46,219 nt of DNA from a virus (lineage: Duplodnaviria > Heunggongvirae > Uroviricota > Caudoviricetes), in IMG/VR virus record IMGVR_UViG_2706794662_000004; one strand, written 5' to 3'. Shown in pieces: positions 246-43,555 of the stretch. The notes below the pieces were generated by a model. It did no database searches and was not told where the DNA came from. It saw only the letters and a list, made by a program, of their open reading frames with translations. Each line of letters opens with the position of its first letter. Position 1 is the stretch's first letter. The position numbers and the translations under genes are program-made.

Positions 246-2159
246 ATGAGCAAAGTAAAAATCGGTGAATTAATAAACTCACTTGTTAGCGATGTTGAGT
301 CAATAGATAACTCTGACCGTCCTCAAGGGGAAAAAACAAAAAAAATAAAGGCTGTTGCATTAAAATTTAAAAATGCATTATTTAATGACAAGCGAAAGTT
401 TAGGGGGAAAGGATTAGAAAAAAGAATTACAGCCAACACATTCAATGCCTATATGAGCAGGGCCAGAAAACGGTTTGATGATAAACTTCATCATAGCTTT
501 GAAAAAAATATACATCGCCTATCTGAAAAGTATCCTTTATATAATGAGGAGCTATTGTCATGGCTTTCTCTACCTGCTGCCGATATTCGCCAGAGAATGT
601 CAACTTTACAGGCAAAATTAAAATTAATTCTCCCTTTATCAGAAGATTTATCTAATATCAGAATTGGTGATAACAAAAATCATAATAAGTTATTAAAATT
701 ATCAAATAAATATAAAGAGTGGCAATTCGCAATTTCTGATTTAACTAGCGATAACTGGAAAGATAAGCGCGATTATTTATATAAATTACTACAGCAAGGA
801 TCTGCCTTGCTTGAGGAGTTGAATCAGCTAAAAGTTAACCATGAGATTCTCTATCATCTTCAACTAAGCCCTGCCGAACGCGCATCTATCCAGCAACGAT
901 GGGCGGACGTTCTGCACAATAAGAAACGTAACGTGGTGGTCATTGATTACCCTAAATATATGCAAGCTATTTACGATATTATAAATAGCCCTGCTACATT
1001 AAATAATCTAAACACTCGTTCAGGTATGGCTCCTTTGGCATTTGCACTTGCTGCATTGTCAGGAAGACGAATGATTGAGATTATGTATCAAGGTACATTT
1101 ACTGTTTCTGGTAAGTATACCGTTGATTTTTTAGGCCAAGCTAAAAAAAGAACTTCTGATGATATAACCAGAAAAATATATACATTATGCGAAGCAAAAA
1201 CATTTGTTTATTTAATAAATGTACTTCGCTCATGCCCAGCAGCATCTGATTTTGATGATGTCGTTAAAGGTTATGGAGATAACGACACACGCTCTGAAAA
1301 CGGACGTATTAATGCCATATTAGCAAAGGCTTTTAACCCGTGGGTTAAATCATTTTTCAAAGATGACCGCCGTGTTTATAAAGATAGTCGTGCTATTTAT
1401 GCCCGTATTGCGTATGAAATGTTTTTCCGCGTAGATCCTCGTTGGAAAAACGTAGATGAGGATGTTTTCTTTATGGAAATTTTAGGCCATGACGATGAAA
1501 ACACTCAATTACACTATAAGCAATTCAAGCTGGCCAACTTCTCAAAGACATGGAGGCCAAATACTGGAAACGAAAATACCAGGCTGGAAGCATTGCAGCA
1601 GCTTGATGACGAAATGCCTGGATTCGCCAGAGGAGATGCCGGGGTTCGTCTGCATAACACAGTTAAGCAGCTGGTAGAGCAGGACCCCTCTATAAAAATC
1701 ACGAACAGCACTCTAAGAGCATTCAAATTTAGCCCAACAATGATTAGCCGATACCTGGAATTTGCTGCTGATGCTCTGGGGCAATTTGTTGGCGAAAATG
1801 GACAATGGCAGCTGAAAATAGATACTCCAGAAATCGTTATGCCTGACGAAGAAGAGCTGGAAGCAATACCTGAACAGACGGATGAATTATCAGATGATGA
1901 CGATCTGGATGACGACGAAATTGAGATAGAGGAAGAGGAAGAGGAAGAGGAAGAGGAAGAGGAAGAGAGCGTAGAAGAACAGCAACCGCCCGCGCCTTCT
2001 TCACCTGTATCTAAGCCGGTATTTAAGCCTGTGAGAAATATTGGTGATGGTTCATACGTTGTTGAGTTTCATTATAATGGCCAGAATTATGCTTGGTCCG
2101 GCAGTGCAAACAGCCCTATGTCAGCAATGCAGTTAGCATGGCTGACATATTTCGGATAA
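246..2159 (+). CDS. telN: Protelomerase (telomere resolvase) TelN
   Basis: 637-aa ORF whose N-terminus (MSKVKIGELIN...) and conserved blocks (e.g. RSGMAPLAFALAA, RAIYARIAYEMFF, KQFKLANFS) match my recollection of N15 TelN; it sits next to the telomere palindrome. Confidence 0.9.
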   Translation: MSKVKIGELINSLVSDVESIDNSDRPQGEKTKKIKAVALKFKNALFNDKRKFRGKGLEKRITANTFNAYMSRARKRFDDKLHHSFEKNIHRLSEKYPLYNEELLSWLSLPAADIRQRMSTLQAKLKLILPLSEDLSNIRIGDNKNHNKLLKLSNKYKEWQFAISDLTSDNWKDKRDYLYKLLQQGSALLEELNQLKVNHEILYHLQLSPAERASIQQRWADVLHNKKRNVVVIDYPKYMQAIYDIINSPATLNNLNTRSGMAPLAFALAALSGRRMIEIMYQGTFTVSGKYTVDFLGQAKKRTSDDITRKIYTLCEAKTFVYLINVLRSCPAASDFDDVVKGYGDNDTRSENGRINAILAKAFNPWVKSFFKDDRRVYKDSRAIYARIAYEMFFRVDPRWKNVDEDVFFMEILGHDDENTQLHYKQFKLANFSKTWRPNTGNENTRLEALQQLDDEMPGFARGDAGVRLHNTVKQLVEQDPSIKITNSTLRAFKFSPTMISRYLEFAADALGQFVGENGQWQLKIDTPEIVMPDEEELEAIPEQTDELSDDDDLDDDEIEIEEEEEEEEEEEEESVEEQQPPAPSSPVSKPVFKPVRNIGDGSYVVEFHYNGQNYAWSGSANSPMSAMQLAWLTYFG

Positions 2160-2170
2160 AGCATACAGTA

Positions 2171-2194
2171 AAGGCACCGAATTATCGGTGCCTT
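2171..2194. terminator. Hairpin terminator between telN and the minus-strand small-gene operon
   Basis: aaggcaccgaattatcggtgcctt stem-loop followed by a T-rich tract, 12 nt after the telN stop. Confidence 0.45.
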
Positions 2195-2201
2195 GTTGTG
2201 T

Positions 2202-2369
2202 GGCCTACCTCGCCTGCCCCTTTTCGTCCTCATCCAACTTTCTGATGGCCGTAGAATCAATACCCGCCGCCATACACACATCAGATGCAACAAACCACGG
2301 TTCGCCGTTAATCATCACTACACGAACCTGATGCTCTTCCTGAAAGGAAAAGACTGCTAACGCGCTCAT
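2202..2369 (-). CDS. Truncated BRO-N/KilA-N-like antirepressor N-terminal fragment (55 aa), possibly a gene remnant
   Basis: Hand translation MSALAVFSFQEEHQVRVVMINGEPWFVASDVCMAAGIDSTAIRKLDEDEKGQAR; AAGGAGG RBS; ATGA overlap with the upstream gene; ORF ends just before the telN terminator. Too short for the ORF track. Confidence 0.4.
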
Positions 2370-2599
2370 TCAGCCTCCTTATCGTGCAGCAATTGCGACG
2401 AGAGCGACGCTGAATACCCCTGTGCTTCGTGTGTTAGCTCACACGCAATTTGAAGGAGTTTCCCTGCTTCTGAGAGATAAATCGACGCCTCACAACTGGA
2501 GATTGTCCGATGGGCTGATGATACGAGCGCATAGACCTGAGCCAGACGTTCATCCAACGATTCCAGCAGGCCAACAGTGTTCATTTTTACCTGATTCAT
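2366..2599 (-). CDS. Hypothetical protein (77 aa), middle gene of a three-gene translationally coupled chain
   Basis: ORF with GAGGTGG RBS; its start overlaps the stop of the Icd-like ORF (ATGA) and its stop overlaps the start of the BRO-N fragment ORF. Confidence 0.45.
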   Translation of the reverse strand: MNQVKMNTVGLLESLDERLAQVYALVSSAHRTISSCEASIYLSEAGKLLQIACELTHEAQGYSASLSSQLLHDKEAE

Positions 2600-2760
2600 G
2601 CAGCCACCTCGCGCACCGGAATACGGGCAGACAATACCAGGACAAACCGGCTGGCGAACTGGCGACGAGCTTCCCGTTCAGATGACGCGATGGTGGAAAG
2701 ATGATGGATGTGTGACTTTTTGTCTGTGCGAACGACTGCCGCAAATTTGAATTTGAACAT
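2596..2760 (-). CDS. Icd-like small protein (54 aa), candidate cell-division inhibitor of a P1 immI-like / N15 immA-like locus
   Basis: Hand translation MFKFKFAAVVRTDKKSHIHHLSTIASSEREARRQFASRFVLVLSARIPVREVAA; resembles the Icd-like family as I recall it; GGAG RBS; not in the ORF track (<60 aa). Confidence 0.35.
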   Translation of the reverse strand: MFKFKFAAVVRTDKKSHIHHLSTIASSEREARRQFASRFVLVLSARIPVREVAA

Positions 2761-2921
2761 GGTATGCACTCCGTTTAATTGGTCGTGCTACCACCAGAGT
2801 TCCTACGCTCTATATGGCGGTAGCCCAGACGGGGGTAGGAATACCGGTAAACGAAGAAACCGGCCAGCTAAAAGCTGCCCCATCTGAGCCACCATAAATT
2901 TGGTGTACGCAGATTTTACAC

Positions 2922-3000
2922 ACAAAAAAACACGCAGGCGCGTGTTGTGCGCTTCATTTACTCGGGTTCCTACGCCCGGCTACGGGATTTACCGTAGCGG
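2922..3000 (-). ncRNA. Candidate c4/CI-like antisense immunity RNA (about 75-80 nt) with its own promoter and intrinsic terminator
   Basis: Minus strand has TTGACG -35 (about 3030-3035), a TAAAGT-like -10, then a 6-bp stem (acacgc/gcgtgt) with 4-nt loop followed by seven U (plus 2924-2946). The RNA contains gcgtaggaac, which recurs in the leader just upstream of the Icd-like RBS (plus 2799-2808). Confidence 0.3.
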
Positions 3001-3135
3001 AGTAACTTTACCGTCAAAACGACGCGCACGTCAATAATTTGCAAAGGCATTTTACCCCGTGACCAGTCACGGGGACAGGTGTTTTTATAGTTTGCTTAAA
3101 CGAGTGTTCAGAAGTTGATCGTTAATCAAAGGCCA

Positions 3136-3423
3136 TTACTGATTAAGAGATTGGAAATACCTAACTAACTTACCGGCATCATCACATTTTTCTTTATCTT
3201 CTTCCTTAACATAGCCGCGACAAAAGGCTGAATAAAATTTTGCATTTTCAGAAGCAAAAGCAGCCGTCGAAAGGAGCAGTTCTTTGCATGATTCTTTTGA
3301 TGCAGCATCGGGATTATTTTTACATGCAAGCTCTGCTGATGAGTCAATAACAGAAATGCTATCTTCCTGGGCATAAACCGCAGCAGAAAAGGCAAAACAT
3401 AAAACAAAAATAAAACTCTTCAC
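3136..3423 (-). CDS. Small secreted protein with four Cys (95 aa), unknown function
   Basis: N-terminal signal peptide MKSFIFVLCFAFSAAVYA-QE; AT-rich coding sequence. Confidence 0.55.
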   Translation of the reverse strand: MKSFIFVLCFAFSAAVYAQEDSISVIDSSAELACKNNPDAASKESCKELLLSTAAFASENAKFYSAFCRGYVKEEDKEKCDDAGKLVRYFQSLNQ

Positions 3424-3450
3424 TTTATCTCCTGTAACAGTTATCGCAAC

Positions 3451-3858
3451 TCAATCAACTTTTTTAGCATCAGCCATACGCTTCAACCAGTAATCAACAA
3501 TCGGTTGCTCATCCACAGAATGTTTACCAGGTATAACTCGCCAGCTGTCTGCCGAAAGGCTACCGTATCTATGCGGGAAAAGGCATTTCTTTAGCTCCTG
3601 CCATGTGCTAGGAAAACCGTCTGCCAAAGTGCCAATTAACAGAAAAGGGACAAAAATCAGGGCTACAAACCATCTGGCAAGAAAGTGCTCAACAATAACC
3701 TCTTCACCGTTATAGTAATACGCATACGTATCCCATATACGAATTTTCCTTACCCTAAAAATGGCCTTATGCTGAGAACGACTTAGCTTGATGCGAATGT
3801 ATCCCTTATCCAAGAGGGATTGGTGTTTGTATGATTGAACAGCCATTTTTAACCCCAC
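3451..3858 (-). CDS. Membrane protein (135 aa), unknown function
   Basis: ORF with hydrophobic helix FLARWFVALIFVPFLLIGTLA; the true start may be the internal Met at 3846. Confidence 0.5.
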   Translation of the reverse strand: MGLKMAVQSYKHQSLLDKGYIRIKLSRSQHKAIFRVRKIRIWDTYAYYYNGEEVIVEHFLARWFVALIFVPFLLIGTLADGFPSTWQELKKCLFPHRYGSLSADSWRVIPGKHSVDEQPIVDYWLKRMADAKKVD

Positions 3859-4175
3859 TCACCATCAGCAAACAAAGCGTTATACTCTGACAATGGTAGA
3901 CGGTTGCCCTCGATGTAGAGATTCAGTTCATACTTCGTCTCCGGGTTTTCCTTGTCTGCTCGTTCCCAACGCTCAGCAGCCTTACGCGCCAATAATTCCA
4001 CTGCTTTCAGGTAATCCTCCGTACGGAACCAGCCAAAGATAAGGCCACGATCTGTTACAGCCCAGGCGACCTTTTTTTCTTCCTCCTGGATAGCCTTAAT
4101 GCGTCGATCGCATTCATCCCGGCAGAACTGCAGCTGACGGTAATCAAGTTTGTCCAAAAATGCAGTAGTAGACAT
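3849..4175 (-). CDS. Hypothetical protein (108 aa)
   Basis: ORF in the same minus-strand operon downstream of repA; no recognisable motif. Confidence 0.5.
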   Translation of the reverse strand: MSTTAFLDKLDYRQLQFCRDECDRRIKAIQEEEKKVAWAVTDRGLIFGWFRTEDYLKAVELLARKAAERWERADKENPETKYELNLYIEGNRLPLSEYNALFADGEWG

Positions 4176-4179
4176 ATTT

Positions 4180-4371
4180 TTACTCCCCGTTCACCGAAAA
4201 ATCACGATAGAAACGTTTCCACATACGATAAGTCTGCGCGAGTTGTTCACCACGAAACATCGCCTTCCTGGCCTTCATGTTTTCCTTGTGAGACTTTCGA
4301 TCTATGAACCAAAACCATTGCTGGAACACACAAAGCAAGAGACACAAAGATAATATCCACTGATTACCCAT
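4180..4371 (-). CDS. Small membrane protein (63 aa) translationally coupled to repA
   Basis: Internal Met (MGNQWILSLCLLLCVFQQWFWF...) whose ATG at 4371-4369 overlaps the repA stop codon; the longer 102-aa reading overlaps repA by 125 nt. Confidence 0.35.
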   Translation of the reverse strand: MGNQWILSLCLLLCVFQQWFWFIDRKSHKENMKARKAMFRGEQLAQTYRMWKRFYRDFSVNGE

Positions 4372-7300
4372 AGAAAGCGCCCTGCTCTTCGTAGCTGCAT
4401 GAGCTATTCCCGGTAATGTATTCTCGTAACCGCCGCAGTTCATTGCTGGACAAGTGATCCATGAACTCTGTGAGGTACAGAGATGCAAACGTCATAGCTA
4501 TGCTGGTTGATGACCATGATGACATAGTGGCCAGCTCCTCACCGGAAAGCGCACTCATCGCCCAGGACTCAGGAACAGCCACCGGCAATACGGCCAAAGC
4601 CTCAGAAATTACTGAATGAGGGGCGTTTTGAACCTGCTCGTTTGTGGATCGCGTTTTATCATCCATATATATATTGAGATCCAAATCGCGATCCATTTCG
4701 ATGGCTGTCTTCTCGGCTTTACGCGTTTTTAGGGTTAGGCCATCTTTCTGACGCTGAACAAGAATATCCAGCATAAATGCCGCTGATTCAGGCTCAACAA
4801 AACGCAAGGTTGGACGCTTATCGCCGTCTCTGCCGCGACGTTTACCTGTTTTAAGGCCAAGAGAGTCGCAAATGTTTTTAAACAACGCTTCCGGCACTTT
4901 AGGCTTCCCTTTTGGCGTCATAAAACCACCAATGTGCAGAACGTTATTCAACAGGTCACGGCGTTCGGCTGTCATGAGATTATCTCGAGCGAATTTGAGA
5001 CGCTCCTGAGTCGCCTCGCCGGTCATAGTCTCAGGGTTGATACCGCAGTCGATAAAGTACTGCCGGAGAGTTGCTGATTTAAGCGCATAGAAACCGCGCG
5101 CCCCGACTTCAACAGTAGGAGTAGCTTTTACCTTGTGATCGATTATTCCAGGGAATTTAGTTTTAAAGACATCATCAGCCTGCTCGCGAGTCATCGCGGT
5201 CACTACAAAATATTGCCACTGTCCCGCCTGACGGTATGCGTAGGTAAAATTGATGGCTGCTTCTTCCCGGTCGTAACGACGAGCTGTTACCTCATCTAAA
5301 AGCATTGTTTCATAGCGGCGAACTTTGTCTCGAGCACCATCGAAATAGAATTTCAGTGTGCCTTCTTCAACCGGTAGTTTCAGTTCGTTTTCAATATCCC
5401 AGCGGACAAGTTTTGCCTGTTCTTCAAGCGTCAGCGCGCGTTTTTTTAGCAGTTCTTCACGCTCTGATTCTTGTGGAGTTTCTGTATTGAGGTGCAGATC
5501 CAGTGTCTGTTCCCACACAATATCCCGCGCTTCTTTACGCAGATCTTTACCGATATCATTCGCAGCATAATCGGTGCCCAGCGGCGATACCTTATAACCG
5601 TCGCTGTGCATGATGCAGATCATGTTGCTGGCGTAGTCGTTACGCGCAGTCGCTTCAATTGCGGCTGCTTTAATTTTCATCCTGGTAAAGTCGGTATTGG
5701 CCACCCCCATTGATATACGGTCGCCATCGAAAATGACATCCGTCAGTTCACCGTTCATACCTGCGGTAGCAAGCAATGCCTGGGCGAATGCTCGTTCTAT
5801 TTTTTGCGGGTCAGTTTCACGTTTTGCACGAGCTTTATCAAAGCCGATAATAAATTCTTTTGCTGTACGGTCGCGGCGTAGCATTTGCACTGCGTCGCTG
5901 GGTACAACTTCACCACAGAACATGCCGAAATGACGGTCAAAATGTTTTTGCTCAATCGACACGCCGGATGAAATAGACGGGCTATAAATCAGGCCGTCGT
6001 ATTTTTTGACCATCTTTTTCGGTTGATTGGTAAATGCTTCAACTTCTGGCTCTGGTTTGTTTTTCTGGTTTACACACAGAAATTTCTTACCAGGAAAATG
6101 CATTCTCAGGGTGGCTGTCACATCTTCTGCAAAGGTGGAGCTGTCGGTGGCCAACATGATTTTTTCGCCATCCGATACAGCTTTCACCACCTCGGTCATG
6201 ATGCGATCTTTTTCTGTATAAAAAACCCGGATTGGCTCACCTGTTTCGCGGTTGCGAACATCAACAGGTAATTCAATTACGTGGATCTGCAGCCATGCCG
6301 GTAAACCTAGTTCTTCACGGCGTTTCATAGCCAGTTCAGCCAGGTCAACCAGCAGATCGTTCGCATCAGCATCCACCATGATTGGGTGTTGTTCCGTTCT
6401 GGCCAGCGCGTCAATTAGCGTATTGAATACAGCCACCGGGTTTTCCATAGCCCGACCGGAAAGAACGGCACGTAGCCCTTGTGTGGCCTCGTCAAAGCCA
6501 AAATAGTCGTGCTGGCGCATCAACGGTTGCCAGCAGTTTTTAACAATCGAGTTTATGCAGATGGTCAGTTTACTGGCGTATGGAGCCATTTCCTGATAGC
6601 CAGGGTCCTGATAGTGCAGGATATCGGCTTTTACACCTTTTCCTTCAGTCATCATTTCCCACAGGCCACCAATAAGGGAAACACGGTGAGCTACAGAGAT
6701 ACCGCGTTCTGAGCTATGCATTAACGGTCGTAACAATCCAGTAGATTTGCCGGAACCCATACCAGCACGAACGATGACGATCCCCTGTAGTGATTGCACG
6801 TACTTCAGGACGTCATCGGTCATTACCGAAGTTTCAAAACGCTTATAGGTGATATGTTGAGGGCGTTTATTGGGATCAGTTATGCGTTCGCTGAAAGAGC
6901 GCGGAGCCTGGGCAATACGGCACTTTTTATTCAGGCGACGGGCAATGTGGTCTTTTACCGTAGCGCGATAGATATTTTCCAGCCCCATTTCACGCAGAAC
7001 GATGCAGAACATGTTAAACAAATCTGACGGACTGTTAGGAACCGGACAGGTTAGCATGCCAATATCCACCGCTCTCAGCAGCTCTTTGGCAAAAGTACGA
7101 CGGTTATCCCGCTTAATTGTCTTCAGGCGGTTGAGCGTCAGAGATAGCAAATCAGTGCCGGTTTTCAGGCGGTTTGCTGTTGCAAATAGTTGACGTGCTG
7201 TTTCACGAAGTCCACGTAGTTTGTGCAGGTCGTTGAAGTCACTGCACTCCATTTGCGGATCGTCTTCAAAAGTTGGATAGACGCAGCGGACATCGTTGAA

Positions 7301-8359
7301 TTTCGATAAGATTTCATAGCCAGTCCGCAGGCCGGTATTCCCTTTTCCTTCTGTGGCTGATTTCCGGTCATTATCCAGTGCGCAGGTGATTTTTGCCGCC
7401 GGGTACATGTTTACCAGTTGTTCCACAACATGAACCATGTTGTTAGCGGATACAGCGACAACCACAGCGTCAAAGCGTTTATCTTTTTTCGTGGCAAGCC
7501 AGATGGATGCACCAGTAGCAAAACCTTCTGTAACAGCGATGTTTTGCGCCCCTTTCAGCTCACCGATAACAAAGCAGGCACCGACGAAATCGCCGCTGGT
7601 TACTGCGCTGGTCTGGTATTTCCCACCTTGTTTGTCGATTCGCTGCCAACCCACAATACGACCATCGTAACGACCGTCCAGGTGAGCCAGAGGGATAGCC
7701 ATATATGTGGTTGGCCCCCGGTTCCATTTCGCACTGTCGTGACTGGTCACGCGACGCACATCACATGAACTAAAAACGTCACGAATACCTTTTTTAATCG
7801 CATATGGCCATGAGCCGTCTTCTGCAGGAGCATGTTCCCACGCGCTGTGGAATGCCAGCCATCCCAGCAAACGTTCATGGTCCATTTGGTTGTTTTTCAG
7901 GTCATTAATTCGTTTTTGTTCTTCACGGCGACGACGTGCTTCGGCCTGACGTTTTATTCTTGCCCGTTCTTCTTCCGGTTGTGCGACCACGGTCGCATTA
8001 TTCCGTTGTTGCTCACGGCGATATTCAGAAAACAGGAAGGAGAAACCGCTCCATGAGCCAGCATCGCTGCCTTTATGGACGAAGTTAATGAACGGGTAAT
8101 CAATCCCTTTGCTGTGTTCCAGCCGAGAGTAAATTTCTACGCGTCCTTTGAGGCTCTTTTCGAGAGCTTCTGGAGATGTTTTATTGTATGAAGAGTAACG
8201 CTCAACACCCCCGCGAGGGTTGAGTTGGATGTTGTCGGAACAGGCAGACCAGTTGATACCAGCCATCTGTGCCAGCTCGGTTAGTTCATCCCGTGCTGCT
8301 TCAATTAGCGAGAACGGATCGCTGCCAAAGCGATCCGCATAGAAATCGTTTAATGTCAT
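4364..8359 (-). CDS. repA: Multifunctional replication protein RepA (primase-helicase, 1331 aa)
   Basis: Size close to N15 RepA (about 1324 aa as I recall); Walker A GMGSGKST in the central helicase part; position upstream of the cB immunity region as in N15. Confidence 0.85.
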   Translation of the reverse strand: MTLNDFYADRFGSDPFSLIEAARDELTELAQMAGINWSACSDNIQLNPRGGVERYSSYNKTSPEALEKSLKGRVEIYSRLEHSKGIDYPFINFVHKGSDAGSWSGFSFLFSEYRREQQRNNATVVAQPEEERARIKRQAEARRRREEQKRINDLKNNQMDHERLLGWLAFHSAWEHAPAEDGSWPYAIKKGIRDVFSSCDVRRVTSHDSAKWNRGPTTYMAIPLAHLDGRYDGRIVGWQRIDKQGGKYQTSAVTSGDFVGACFVIGELKGAQNIAVTEGFATGASIWLATKKDKRFDAVVVAVSANNMVHVVEQLVNMYPAAKITCALDNDRKSATEGKGNTGLRTGYEILSKFNDVRCVYPTFEDDPQMECSDFNDLHKLRGLRETARQLFATANRLKTGTDLLSLTLNRLKTIKRDNRRTFAKELLRAVDIGMLTCPVPNSPSDLFNMFCIVLREMGLENIYRATVKDHIARRLNKKCRIAQAPRSFSERITDPNKRPQHITYKRFETSVMTDDVLKYVQSLQGIVIVRAGMGSGKSTGLLRPLMHSSERGISVAHRVSLIGGLWEMMTEGKGVKADILHYQDPGYQEMAPYASKLTICINSIVKNCWQPLMRQHDYFGFDEATQGLRAVLSGRAMENPVAVFNTLIDALARTEQHPIMVDADANDLLVDLAELAMKRREELGLPAWLQIHVIELPVDVRNRETGEPIRVFYTEKDRIMTEVVKAVSDGEKIMLATDSSTFAEDVTATLRMHFPGKKFLCVNQKNKPEPEVEAFTNQPKKMVKKYDGLIYSPSISSGVSIEQKHFDRHFGMFCGEVVPSDAVQMLRRDRTAKEFIIGFDKARAKRETDPQKIERAFAQALLATAGMNGELTDVIFDGDRISMGVANTDFTRMKIKAAAIEATARNDYASNMICIMHSDGYKVSPLGTDYAANDIGKDLRKEARDIVWEQTLDLHLNTETPQESEREELLKKRALTLEEQAKLVRWDIENELKLPVEEGTLKFYFDGARDKVRRYETMLLDEVTARRYDREEAAINFTYAYRQAGQWQYFVVTAMTREQADDVFKTKFPGIIDHKVKATPTVEVGARGFYALKSATLRQYFIDCGINPETMTGEATQERLKFARDNLMTAERRDLLNNVLHIGGFMTPKGKPKVPEALFKNICDSLGLKTGKRRGRDGDKRPTLRFVEPESAAFMLDILVQRQKDGLTLKTRKAEKTAIEMDRDLDLNIYMDDKTRSTNEQVQNAPHSVISEALAVLPVAVPESWAMSALSGEELATMSSWSSTSIAMTFASLYLTEFMDHLSSNELRRLREYITGNSSCSYEEQGAFYG
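7982..7997. promoter_or_regulatory. 16-bp perfect palindrome TGCGACCACGGTCGCA, candidate SopB centromere site (copy 1, inside repA)
   Basis: Exact palindrome, one of five copies; resembles the F sopC core TGGGACCACGGTCCCA. Confidence 0.5.
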
Positions 8360-12654: not shown

Positions 12655-12981
12655 ATGGCGCTGACACCGGCAGAACGGCAAAGGAGACGCAGGGAACGGT
12701 TGAAGAAGGAAGGCACATCAAGACGGGACTGGATTTTGGAGCCTGACGAGTTACGTATGTTGGGGGAAATTTGTGTATTGCGTAGACCAGGGCGAGTTCC
12801 ATATTCGGAGAACGAAGTCATTGGTTTGCTGATCAGGAAAAACTATAAGGAGCTGCAGAAGCAGCTATCTACTACTTGCCCGCGATGTGGTCAAAAAATG
12901 CCTGTTTCAGAATGCATTTTTGATGGCGAAGGGTCATGCCACCTTACAACCACGAGGCTGAAACTTGCGCTCAAAGCGTGA
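12655..12981 (+). CDS. Hypothetical protein with basic N-terminus and CxxC ... C ... C motif (108 aa)
   Basis: ORF with AGGAGG RBS; Arg-rich N-terminus; CPRCGQ ... SECIFDGEGSCH. Confidence 0.5.
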   Translation: MALTPAERQRRRRERLKKEGTSRRDWILEPDELRMLGEICVLRRPGRVPYSENEVIGLLIRKNYKELQKQLSTTCPRCGQKMPVSECIFDGEGSCHLTTTRLKLALKA

Positions 12982-12999
12982 CTGGTCACGGAGGGATAA

Positions 13000-33997: not shown

Positions 33998-34741
33998 ATG
34001 ACACAGACAGAATCAGCGATTCTGGCGCACGCCCGGCGATGTGCGCCAGCGGAGTCGTGCGGCTTCGTGGTAAGCACGCCGGAGGGGGAAAGATATTTCC
34101 CCTGCGTGAATATCTCCGGTGAGCCGGAGGCGTATTTCCGTATGTCGCCGGAAGACTGGCTGCAGGCAGAAATGCAGGGTGAGATTGTGGCGCTGGTCCA
34201 CAGCCACCCCGGTGGTCTGCCCTGGCTGAGTGAGGCCGACCGGCGGCTGCAGGTGCAGAGTGATTTGCCGTGGTGGCTGGTCTGCCGGGGGACGATTCAT
34301 AAGTTCCGCTGTGTGCCGCATCTCACCGGGCGGCGCTTTGAGCACGGTGTGACGGACTGTTACACACTGTTCCGGGATGCTTATCATCTGGCGGGGATTG
34401 AGATGCCGGACTTTCATCGTGAGGATGACTGGTGGCGTAACGGCCAGAATCTCTATCTGGATAATCTGGAGGCGACGGGGCTGTATCAGGTGCCGTTGTC
34501 AGCGGCACAGCCGGGCGATGTGCTGCTGTGCTGTTTTGGTTCATCGGTGCCGAATCACGCCGCAATTTACTGCGGCGACGGCGAGCTGCTGCACCATATT
34601 CCTGAACAACTGAGCAAACGAGAGAGGTACACCGACAAATGGCAGCGACGCACACACTCCCTCTGGCGTCACCGGGCATGGCGCGCATCTGCCTTTACGG
34701 GGATTTACAACGATTTGGTCGCCGCATCGACCTTCGTGTGA
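33998..34741 (+). CDS. K: Tail tip assembly protein K (JAMM/Mov34 plus NlpC/P60-like)
   Basis: HSHPGG metalloprotease-like motif and downstream Cys/His motif; lambda order. Confidence 0.8.
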   Translation: MTQTESAILAHARRCAPAESCGFVVSTPEGERYFPCVNISGEPEAYFRMSPEDWLQAEMQGEIVALVHSHPGGLPWLSEADRRLQVQSDLPWWLVCRGTIHKFRCVPHLTGRRFEHGVTDCYTLFRDAYHLAGIEMPDFHREDDWWRNGQNLYLDNLEATGLYQVPLSAAQPGDVLLCCFGSSVPNHAAIYCGDGELLHHIPEQLSKRERYTDKWQRRTHSLWRHRAWRASAFTGIYNDLVAASTFV

Positions 34742-42980: not shown

Positions 42981-43555
42981 TGGCATTCAGAATGAGTGAA
43001 CAACCACGGACCATAAAAATTTATAATCTGCTGGCCGGAACTAATGAATTTATTGGTGAAGGTAACGCATATATTCCGCCTCATACAGGTCTGCCAGCAA
43101 ACAGTACCGATATTGCACCACCAGATATTCCTGCTGGCTTTGTGGCTGTTTTCAACAGTGATGAGGCATCGTGGCATCTCGTTGAAGATCATCGGGGTAA
43201 AACGGTTTATGACGTGGCTTCCGGCGACGCGTTATTTATTTCTGAACTCGGTCCGTTACCGAAAAATGTTACCTGGTTATCGCCGGAAGGGGAGTTTCAG
43301 AAGTGGAACGGCACAGCCTGGGTGAAGGATACGGAAGCAGAAAAACTGTTCCGGATCCGGGAGGCGGAAGAAACAAAAAACAACCTGATGCAGGTAGCCA
43401 GTGAGCATATTGCGCCGCTTCAGGATGCTGTAGATCTGGAAATCGCAACAGAGGAAGAAACCTCGTTGCTGGAAGCTTGGAAAAAGTATCGGGTGTTGCT
43501 GAACCGTGTTGATACATCACTATCTCCAGATATCGAGTGGCCAAGTCAACCATAA
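42980..43555 (+). CDS. tfa: Tail fibre assembly protein Tfa
   Basis: [28 protein letters not shown] matches recalled lambda Tfa. Confidence 0.85.

Follow-up and report, generated by a model that had tools for sequence, protein, structure and literature searches.

A predicted immA operon with an IsrK/C4-type RNA pair and a shortened antB gene in an N15-like phage-plasmid

N15-like linear plasmid phages carry an anti-immunity operon, immA, made up of icd, antA and antB (PMC4488713, PMC10612081), and the IsrK-C4 system that goes with it has been described as common to P4, P1, P7 and N15 (PMC3632133). P4 immunity (seqA, CI RNA, seqC) is conferred primarily by the RNA itself, which blocks the replication genes by premature termination, with no icd/ant operon attached. 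P1/P7 c4 and P4 CI both arise from longer precursors through cleavage by RNase P. In the P1/P7 immI locus (c4 RNA, icd, ant1/ant2), the leader of the operon yields a C4-family antisense RNA by processing, the a and b target boxes are duplicated up- and downstream of C4, the downstream one lying at the ribosome-binding site of icd, and the antirepressor is coupled to an Icd-like gene in first position (Citron and Schuster, 1990, as referenced in PMC3632133). The isrK locus of Gifsy-1 in Salmonella (IsrK, STnc1160/orf45, AnrP) has been studied experimentally: the short IsrK RNA switches on translation of the read-through mRNA in trans, and it is for this Salmonella RNA only that Hfq binding and trans-activation have been shown (PMC4825925).

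The window analysed here, a stretch of 46,219 nucleotides from a virus of the Caudoviricetes, carries on its minus strand, at 2202-3040, a locus that sequence comparison identifies as a homolog of N15 immA in an N15-like phage-plasmid. We consider it likely that this is the immA operon of a linear plasmid prophage of the N15 type, with an IsrK/C4-type RNA pair in control. The operon, which runs towards telN and whose promoter is a homolog of the N15 immA promoter, is flanked by telN (246-2159) and repA (4364-8359), the same arrangement as in N15, YDC107_1 and PhiR46_1. With N15 immA it shares this slot, the promoter, an isrK-type leader with its terminator, a C4-type RNA in the leader, and icd as first gene translationally coupled to antA as second; a full-length antB (around 260 aa, BRO-N plus C-terminal domain) is absent. 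It is the known "secondary immunity" switch of these phages, its RNA switch intact and antB, the auxiliary third gene, alone shortened, and is otherwise ordinary; the kind of system is already known, and the window adds another representative. The layout of immI described above, with its duplicated boxes and coupled Icd-like gene, is likewise found here, and the parallel to N15 immA and P1 immI drawn in the initial annotation, which had been made from the sequence alone, holds. Gifsy-1 has the same order of isrK-family terminated leader, C4-family RNA and antirepressor gene. In contrast to the present locus, it is an integrated lambdoid prophage without annotated icd or antA homologs at isrK, its antirepressor gene directly follows the RNA and feeds into the antiterminator Q, and the published model is centred on orf45 rather than on the C4 RNA. 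Unless stated otherwise, all features below lie on the minus strand.

The promoter-like pair noted earlier was recovered by a consensus scan at 3005..3034 (TTGACG, an 18-nt spacer, TAAAGT), and in an alignment of nine N15-like relatives its -35 element is invariant and its -10 element conserved. Position 1 of the Rfam isrK model falls at 2998, near which transcription is also predicted to start. Rfam, the predicted fold and the terminator together define a leader RNA of the isrK/seqA/c4-a1b1 type at 2922..2998, which folds into two 5' hairpins followed by an intrinsic terminator (pairing probability >0.95). Hairpin 1 (2979-2998) is 100% paired with three compensatory pairs, while hairpin 2 (2963-2978) displays box b1 (GUAGGAA, 2967-2973) in its loop; box a1 (UAAAUGAAG, 2952-2960) has the terminator directly 3' of it. 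A strong terminator had been proposed at this place with a 6-bp stem; terminator scan and fold agree on its presence and on a U run ending at 2922, and give the stem (2929-2946) 7 bp. With a start near 2998, the terminated RNA would be about 75 nt long. It passes the gathering score of isrK (RF01394, 62.8 bits against 50) and matches the full c4-a1b1 model (RF03163, E 1e-7) with 37.8 bits, under the gathering score of 46.7 that five relatives pass; in this low score, and in the intrinsic terminator of isrK type at the end of a1b1, it differs from P1/P7 immI. As Rfam describes c4-a1b1 as 'a1, b1 targets of C4', these two matches make the 75-nt RNA a target or decoy element.

The C4-family antisense RNA itself lies between the leader terminator and icd, at 2813..2899, and is homologous to the N15 CA RNA and the P4 CI RNA. 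The match to C4 (RF01695) reaches 73.6 bits against a gathering score of 45 and covers model positions 1-87 of 87. A closing stem of 16 bp surrounds two internal hairpins (MFE -44.4 kcal/mol, z = -5.6); across 11 sequences the closing stem is 100% paired with 16/16 pairs kept, and the covariation analysis finds the internal helices conserved as well. Recognition box a' (CUUCGUUUA, 2848-2856) occupies the loop of hairpin 2, and box b' (UUCCUAC, 2835-2841) is single-stranded 3' of this hairpin. All 11 relatives tested with Rfam carry the isrK-then-C4 tandem, including N15 and P4 (where seqA matches isrK and CI matches C4), and it is also present in Gifsy-1. The full-length C4 RNA had been missed in the initial annotation, where this stretch was taken for plain leader.

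A second target region lies in the icd leader (2769..2808), with box b2 (GUAGGAA, 2800-2806) in a small hairpin loop and box a2 (UAAACGGAG, 2769-2777) including the icd Shine-Dalgarno sequence GGAG (2769-2772), an overlap seen in every N15-like relative. The C4 segment pairs with the upstream target at -33.1 kcal/mol, the best sense-strand match in the window (background -14.2 +/- 4.5), and with the downstream target, Shine-Dalgarno included, at -23.0 kcal/mol. Among 11-16 relatives the boxes co-change in all three places, and there are five types of b box, with C4, b1 and b2 matching one another in every type. A sliding count of pairs gave too high a background, for the a box especially, and column-based covariation and duplex energies were used instead, the former covering the b box only because the a box does not keep the same register from one type to the next in the alignment. 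Pairing in the b'-b2 helix is 100%, and 5/7 of its pairs show compensatory changes, a level that none of 500 shuffles reached; the b'-b1 helix is 90.9% paired. Cognate duplexes average -23.4 kcal/mol as opposed to -15.2 kcal/mol for non-cognate ones, and for each target set the cognate duplex ranked first in 10 of 11 rows. Part of the covariation signal reflects common ancestry or recombination of whole modules rather than independent events. Cofolding of full-length C4 with its target brings a marginal gain (-73.5 vs. -70.8 kcal/mol) because the stem of C4 must stay closed, and the interaction must consequently be of the kissing type.

The same pattern of boxes is seen in P4, where b' reads UUCUCAC and GUGAGAA is present on both sides. 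Relative to N15, both recognition boxes differ (a' CUUCGUUUA here and CUUCUUGUA in N15; b' UUCCUAC here and UUGAGAA in N15), so that the two systems are not expected to regulate each other. The window pairs an a box of the NAR688/PhiR46_1 type with a b box of the phiKO2/PY54 type. The comparison across relatives offers a clean natural case in which three partners, an antisense RNA and both of its targets, have evolved together, although neither this example nor the losses of AntB described below alter the understanding of the system.

Homology is what the RNA ends, the processing and the regulatory outcome rest on, and it suggests the following sequence of events. From the conserved sigma-70-type promoter, transcription would start near 2998 and mostly end at the intrinsic terminator, yielding the RNA of about 75 nt that bears b1 and a1. 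Read-through transcripts would contain the C4 RNA, presumably excised by RNase P as are P1 c4 and P4 CI, whose loop box a' and single-stranded b' could then pair with a2 and b2 in the icd leader. Since a2 includes the Shine-Dalgarno sequence, such pairing should block translation of icd, and as antA and the antB stub start within ATGA overlaps, they should be silenced together with it; pairing may additionally promote premature termination. The leader RNA, having the same boxes, would compete for C4, and in excess should titrate it and turn the operon on, as the short IsrK does in Gifsy-1, whose action in trans is the behavior proposed here for the 75-nt RNA. A tentative extension, which we hold to be possible but rather doubtful, makes the leader a trans-acting sponge for C4 and immA a threshold switch, the specificity of which evolves by independent swaps of a and b boxes. 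If this were true, the antB-less E. coli lineage would already comprise three or more types that do not cross-react with one another, and the antB stub may persist merely as a coupled terminal ORF or a micro-protein.

Control could instead follow the mode of P4, with C4 acting mainly by provoking premature termination through both flanking sites and the overlap with the Shine-Dalgarno sequence being secondary. A study of N15 by Ravin and colleagues from 1999 is said to have found CA-RNA-dependent premature termination, in which case an account by translational block alone may misplace the emphasis. The homologous isrK (seqA) and C4 (CI) elements of P4 and the position of the intrinsic terminator directly 3' of box a1 point the same way, as does the IsrK paper, in whose summary CI pairs with seqA and seqC and acts as a termination factor (PMC4825925). 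However, folding of the leader gave no antiterminator alternative, and the predicted terminator was unchanged by occupancy of a1/b1 by C4 (P>0.95 with or without it), while the conserved overlap of a2 with the Shine-Dalgarno sequence is what translational control predicts. We therefore regard a mainly terminating C4 as a minority possibility, bearing in mind that termination and a translational block can coexist.

Downstream of the two RNAs, the genes icd and antA are intact and, as judged from substitution patterns, under purifying selection. The Icd-like ORF of 54 aa noted earlier (icd, 2596..2760) matches the family of Icd-like cell-division inhibitors NF033153 over its full profile (E 1.1e-18, positions 1-48/48), shares 94% identity with the last 54 aa of N15 gp32, and has a pN/pS of 0.06-0.11 relative to N15 and Klebsiella phages. 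A Pfam search of this ORF returned no match to Icd; its one candidate, LtuB, was below threshold and treated as spurious, and NCBIfam decided for Icd. The 77-aa ORF, also predicted earlier, is the homolog of N15 gp31 (antA, 2366..2599, pN/pS 0.07-0.14), which overlaps icd by ATGA at 2596-2599; AntA is 66% identical to gp31 (E 2e-30) and matches phrog_6301 (E 2e-36) and the 'anti-repressor' family phrog_10889 (E 1e-18). In the phiKO2 record the AntA homolog (note to Gp28) is the antirepressor and AntB an auxiliary antirepressor. Antirepressor activity against the CB repressor and inhibition of cell division by Icd are the functions predicted for the operon. The antirepressors appear to be of other families than those of P1/P7, as far as can be judged from a comparison that covered AntA, AntB and their N15 and phiKO2 homologs.

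The third ORF, which had been read as the start of a BRO-N antirepressor, was likewise found, with 54 aa in place of 55 (2205..2369) and an ATGA overlap with antA, so that the overlaps described earlier exist at both junctions; profile searches placed the first ORF in the Icd-like family and the third in the BRO-N family. Its match to Pfam Bro-N (PF02498; 30.7 bits against a threshold of 25.6) covers profile positions 1-41 of 96 only, and the domain is incomplete. The stub aligns to residues 1-52 of N15 gp30, its first 50-51 residues being derived from AntB and its last three codons and stop coming from beyond the deletion; full-length AntB has 264 aa in N15 (gp30) and 258 aa in YDC107_1, relative to which 735 bp are absent here, with a GGG microhomology at the junction (2217-2219). 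The antirepressor that had been called truncated is therefore the auxiliary AntB, while AntA is intact. An identical junction is present in 13 of the 16 E. coli plasmids that carry the region, which makes the stub the majority form. G749 (intact antB) and EC21Z-151 (stub) have the same RNAs, Icd and AntA. A search of the literature on PhiR46_1 found no paper showing that a stub-carrying phage is viable. Klebsiella phage 48ST307 lacks antB independently, and PY54 is reported to lack it too (PMC4488713). The comparison shows two or more losses of AntB among telomere phages; losing most of it would weaken the antirepressor output of the operon and do nothing more.

The initial annotation had called the locus degraded, and in keeping with this it could be a non-functional remnant in which anti-immunity disappeared with antB, and the RNAs and small ORFs are kept only because the deletion is recent. 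The small part of the Bro-N profile that is left would fit, and the stub-carrying plasmids are 94-99% identical, allowing little time for decay. Against this reading, the stub allele is found alongside three RNA specificity types, the boxes agreeing at all three sites within each type, which implies continued selection or recombination of working modules. Between two stub-carrying plasmids antA shows 13 synonymous and 3 nonsynonymous differences, telomere phages evidently persist without antB (48ST307, PY54), and the 13 stub plasmids come from panda, poultry, dog, cat and human isolates. Given also the low pN/pS of icd and antA (0.06-0.14 together), a remnant seems improbable, and we retain the reading of an intact RNA switch with a shortened auxiliary gene.

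Far less probable still is the version first put forward, in which the 75-nt RNA is a c4-like repressor that acts on a copy of GCGTAGGAAC near the icd ribosome-binding site within a decaying system. The RNA is indeed short, structured and terminator-ended, it has the 10-mer in common with the icd leader, and the third gene is truncated. The motif occurs exactly twice in 46 kb (2966-2975 and 2799-2808; chance expectation 0.06), but the copies are identical rather than complementary, and one cannot be antisense to the other; they are not an RNA and its target but the b box twice, both complementary to UUCCUAC of C4 (2835-2841). Rfam places the 75-nt RNA on the target side (isrK/c4-a1b1) and the full-length C4 elsewhere (2813-2899), and the perfectly matched, diversified boxes on the truncated background and the purifying selection on icd and antA speak against decay. 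Equally implausible is a gene for a small 'Ash family' or repressor protein at 2810-2923 in place of an RNA gene: a 37-aa ORF spans this stretch and matches phrog_6928 'transcriptional repressor' (E 7e-5), N15 gp32 residues 7-38 match Pfam Phage_ASH, and PGAP writes 'ash family protein' in several plasmids, but the RNA match spans the full covariance model, the fully paired 16-bp stem shows compensatory and G-U changes, the ORF varies in start and length among relatives with some marked partial by PGAP, and its variable positions are the pairing boxes that co-change with distant target sites. The practical value of the analysis lies in correct annotation, as the region holds two curated RNA genes in E. 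coli N15-like plasmids, genome pipelines mislabel it as 'ash family protein', 'transcriptional repressor' or an over-long Icd, and the antisense RNA is easily mistaken for its decoy.

Beyond the antB stub, a 10-bp hairpin (2171..2194) separates it from the convergent telN, which stops at 2159. It folds with z = -4.1 on the minus and -5.4 on the plus strand and was left uncalled by a simple terminator scan; its equivalent in phiKO2 is annotated as 'putative bidirectional terminator', and the hairpin shared by stub and telN is probably a terminator of this kind.

The window is a linear plasmid prophage that resembles N15 (Ravinvirus-type), with a protelomerase gene (telN) at 246-2159 on the plus strand and a primase/replicase gene of 1331 aa (repA) at 4364-8359 on the minus strand. 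Sequence comparison identifies 2202-3040 (minus strand) as a homolog of the N15 immA locus, since positions 1900-4400 share 94% identity with Escherichia phage PhiR46_1 and 91% with YDC107_1, and their central part shares 79% identity with the N15 region annotated 'cA: secondary immunity repressor / gene 31 / gene 32'. The N15 operon differs in its full-length antB, which has no counterpart here; all its other testable features are present. An 'IsrK-C4 immunity system' has already been described as common to P4, P1, P7 and N15 (PMC3632133). The operon type is therefore known, as N15 immA, and a specialist would find the locus unsurprising; what the element here adds is the way its boxes are combined and the truncation of antB, and the useful yield lies in correcting the annotation and in a tidy set of covariation data.

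An Rfam search at gathering thresholds placed two RNA families in this locus, both on the minus strand: C4 antisense RNA, matched over its full length at 2813-2899 with 73.6 bits (gathering score 45), and isrK, matched at 2925-2998 with 62.8 bits (gathering score 50). The promoter-like pair noted in the initial annotation (TTGACG-18-TAAAGT, 3034..3005) and the terminator after it (here a 7-bp stem at 2946..2929 and a U run) are present, but the initial annotation assigned the two RNAs the wrong way round. Its candidate antisense RNA is a target-bearing leader, because the isrK stretch also matches c4-a1b1 (E 1e-7, under the gathering score), which Rfam describes as 'a1, b1 targets of C4 antisense RNA', and the stretch it took for a leader is the C4 RNA itself. 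In the predicted fold of C4 (-44.4 kcal/mol, z = -5.6), a closing stem of 16 bp encloses two hairpins; in that of the leader RNA, two hairpins are followed by an open linker and then by the terminator, which forms with a probability >0.95.

The pairing boxes all lie on the minus strand. In C4, box a' (CUUCGUUUA, 2848-2856) occupies the loop of hairpin 2 and box b' (UUCCUAC, 2835-2841) the single strand after it. In the leader RNA, the second hairpin displays b1 (GUAGGAA, 2967-2973) in its loop, and the linker holds a1 (UAAAUGAAG, 2952-2960). In the icd leader, b2 (GUAGGAA, 2800-2806) sits in a small hairpin loop, and a2 (UAAACGGAG, 2769-2777) includes the Shine-Dalgarno sequence of icd (GGAG), which precedes the ATG at 2760 by nine bases. 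A repeated 10-mer noticed earlier, GCGTAGGAAC, indeed occurs exactly twice (2966-2975 and 2799-2808; 0.06 expected by chance), and as read from the sequence it is the b target box in two copies; these are identical, not complementary, and therefore neither can be antisense to the other. A 30-nt C4 segment is predicted to pair with the upstream site at -33.1 kcal/mol, the top sense-strand match in the whole window, and with the downstream site at -23.0 kcal/mol, against a background across the window of -14.2 ± 4.5 kcal/mol.

We compared 11 relatives (N15, YDC107_1, PhiR46_1, NAR688, 48ST307, KpLi5, 020009, phiKO2, Kpn74, PY54 and P4), and in every one an isrK-family element precedes a C4-family RNA; a 'putative rho-independent terminator' annotated in N15 coincides with the terminator of its isrK-type element. 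Among these phages the b box comes in five types and the a box in several, and each phage shows its change at all three places: C4, the leader RNA and the site next to icd. Across the alignment of 11 sequences, pairing in the b'-b2 helix is complete (100%), and 5 of its 7 pairs show compensatory changes (none of 500 shuffles reached the observed value, and slid controls pair at 20-53%), and the b'-b1 helix is 90.9% paired, again with five of seven pairs compensatory. Cognate duplexes average -25.5 (upstream) and -23.4 (downstream) kcal/mol, as opposed to -14.8 and -15.2 for non-cognate ones, and in both target sets the cognate target comes out best for 10 of 11 rows. Internal helices are kept in both RNAs, eight pairs showing compensatory changes. 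Because of this covariation, the cognate energies and the conserved helices, the comparison argues for RNA genes in this stretch rather than the annotated 'ash family protein' or 'repressor' CDSs, and it provides the strongest available evidence that the RNA switch of the window is functional.

Protein annotations overlie the C4 gene in the window (2810-2923, minus strand). N15 gp32 (2610-2900) is drawn as 96 aa, of which residues 7-38 match Pfam Phage_ASH; PGAP places 'ash family protein' CDSs, some flagged partial, over the C4 gene in related plasmids, and KpLi5 has a second 'Icd-like' CDS drawn over the RNA. These protein families probably contain translations of this conserved RNA gene.

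The window shares its a box with NAR688/PhiR46_1 and its b box with phiKO2/48ST307/PY54. Identity to PhiR46_1, the closest relative, is 94-96% in the flanks and only 84% in the RNA region, and the b box of PhiR46_1 differs from that of the window in all three places; module exchange likely gave the two a different secondary-immunity specificity.

Downstream, three small reading frames joined by ATGA overlaps are present as first described, except that they encode 54, 77 and 54 aa, the last not 55. The first is Icd-like, matching the whole NF033153 profile (E 1e-18) and the C-terminal 54 residues of N15 gp32 at 94% identity; a Pfam search did not detect this identity. The second is the homolog of N15 gp31 (66% identity), which also matches phrog_10889 'anti-repressor'. 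The third, the antB stub (2205-2369), is truncated as proposed, covering only positions 1-41 of 96 of the Bro-N profile and aligning to residues 1-52 of N15 gp30 (264 aa).

Relative to YDC107_1 (95-96% identity on either side), a single 735-bp block is missing, with 3-nt GGG microhomology at the junction (2217-2219), removing AntB from residue 52 on. The stub frame continues for three codons past the deletion, and its stop lies about 10 nt short of a 10-bp hairpin (2171-2194) that also serves the convergent telN, a site whose equivalent is annotated in phiKO2 as a bidirectional terminator. The same junction occurs in 13 of 16 complete E. coli genomes with this region, every time on a plasmid, from panda, poultry, dog, cat and human isolates. 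The identical 54-aa stub protein (WP_001542490.1) is found with two RNA types and a variant with a third; in pG749_3, RNAs, Icd and AntA of the PhiR46_1 type accompany an AntB that is intact (260 aa). Klebsiella phage 48ST307 has no antB, its telN stop lying 54 bp after antA, and PY54 is reported to lack it (PMC4488713). The phiKO2 record names AntA as antirepressor and AntB as auxiliary antirepressor, and papers from the Hertwig laboratory (PMC4488713, PMC10612081) describe what AntB does as not established. For icd and antA, pN/pS is 0.06-0.14, a range that takes in antA between two stub-carrying plasmids (13 synonymous versus 3 nonsynonymous differences). Given the spread of the junction, the absence of antB elsewhere, its annotated auxiliary role and the low pN/pS, the locus, initially called degraded, looks like an established allele that lost an accessory part and not like ongoing decay. 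In the deposited Kpn74 sequence the icd and antB frames are broken or split, which could be sequencing error or real decay, and antA of 48ST307 (2048-2329) starts with GTG.

Set upon the observed family memberships, folds, pairing potential, covariation, coupling overlaps, gene identities and deletion, homologous systems suggest how termination, RNase P processing, a block of the icd Shine-Dalgarno and decoy competition would act together. Most transcripts from the promoter would terminate to give the 75-nt leader RNA, and C4 would be released from read-through transcripts by RNase P, a processing established for P1/P7 c4 and P4 CI. By pairing with b2 and a2, C4 would occlude the icd Shine-Dalgarno and so silence icd and, through coupling, antA and the antB stub as well; the leader RNA, bearing the same boxes, would compete for C4. 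Termination of the P4 kind has to be considered seriously, in place of this block or alongside it, and the N15 study reportedly also described control of that kind. The mode is summarised in PMC4825925 and PMC3632133. Folding revealed no antiterminator, and a1/b1 occupancy had no effect on the predicted terminator, and therefore the folds do not explain a route for modulating termination. The scheme with the Shine-Dalgarno block has a supporting precedent in Gifsy-1, which has the same order, isrK (34240-34316), C4 (34131-34214) and the antirepressor gene, and whose short IsrK was shown to act in trans on read-through mRNA, switching on translation (PMC4825925).

Other features of the window are as follows. 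A 16-bp palindrome, CCGTGACTGGTCACGG, at 3057-3072, about 20 nt upstream of the immA promoter -35, recurs with up to two mismatches at 7737-7752 inside repA and at 12976-12991 (0.24 matches expected by chance); relatives including N15 and phiKO2 keep it upstream of the promoter as well. In N15, centromere inverted repeats that bind SopB are scattered near regulatory regions, and the palindromes may be the same elements. Directly upstream of the immA promoter, a 95-aa ORF (3136-3423, minus strand) with a signal-peptide-like N-terminus is named 'Spackle exclusion protein' in PhiR46_1 and matches phrog_26765, of unknown function (E 1e-61). In Klebsiella relatives the stretch between repA and telN is occupied by colicin-like 'telocin' toxin and immunity cassettes (PMC12042878), which suggests that cargo at this position is variable. 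A full-length match to Rfam IS009 (RF02111) at 43323-43521 on the plus strand (224.5 bits, gathering score 117) is unrelated to the immA locus. In the 3' region of telN (1900-1990), a run of GAG/GAA codons encodes a poly-Glu tract (EEEEEEEEEEEEE) near the C-terminus; in the 48ST307 protelomerase the acidic tract is shorter and interrupted.
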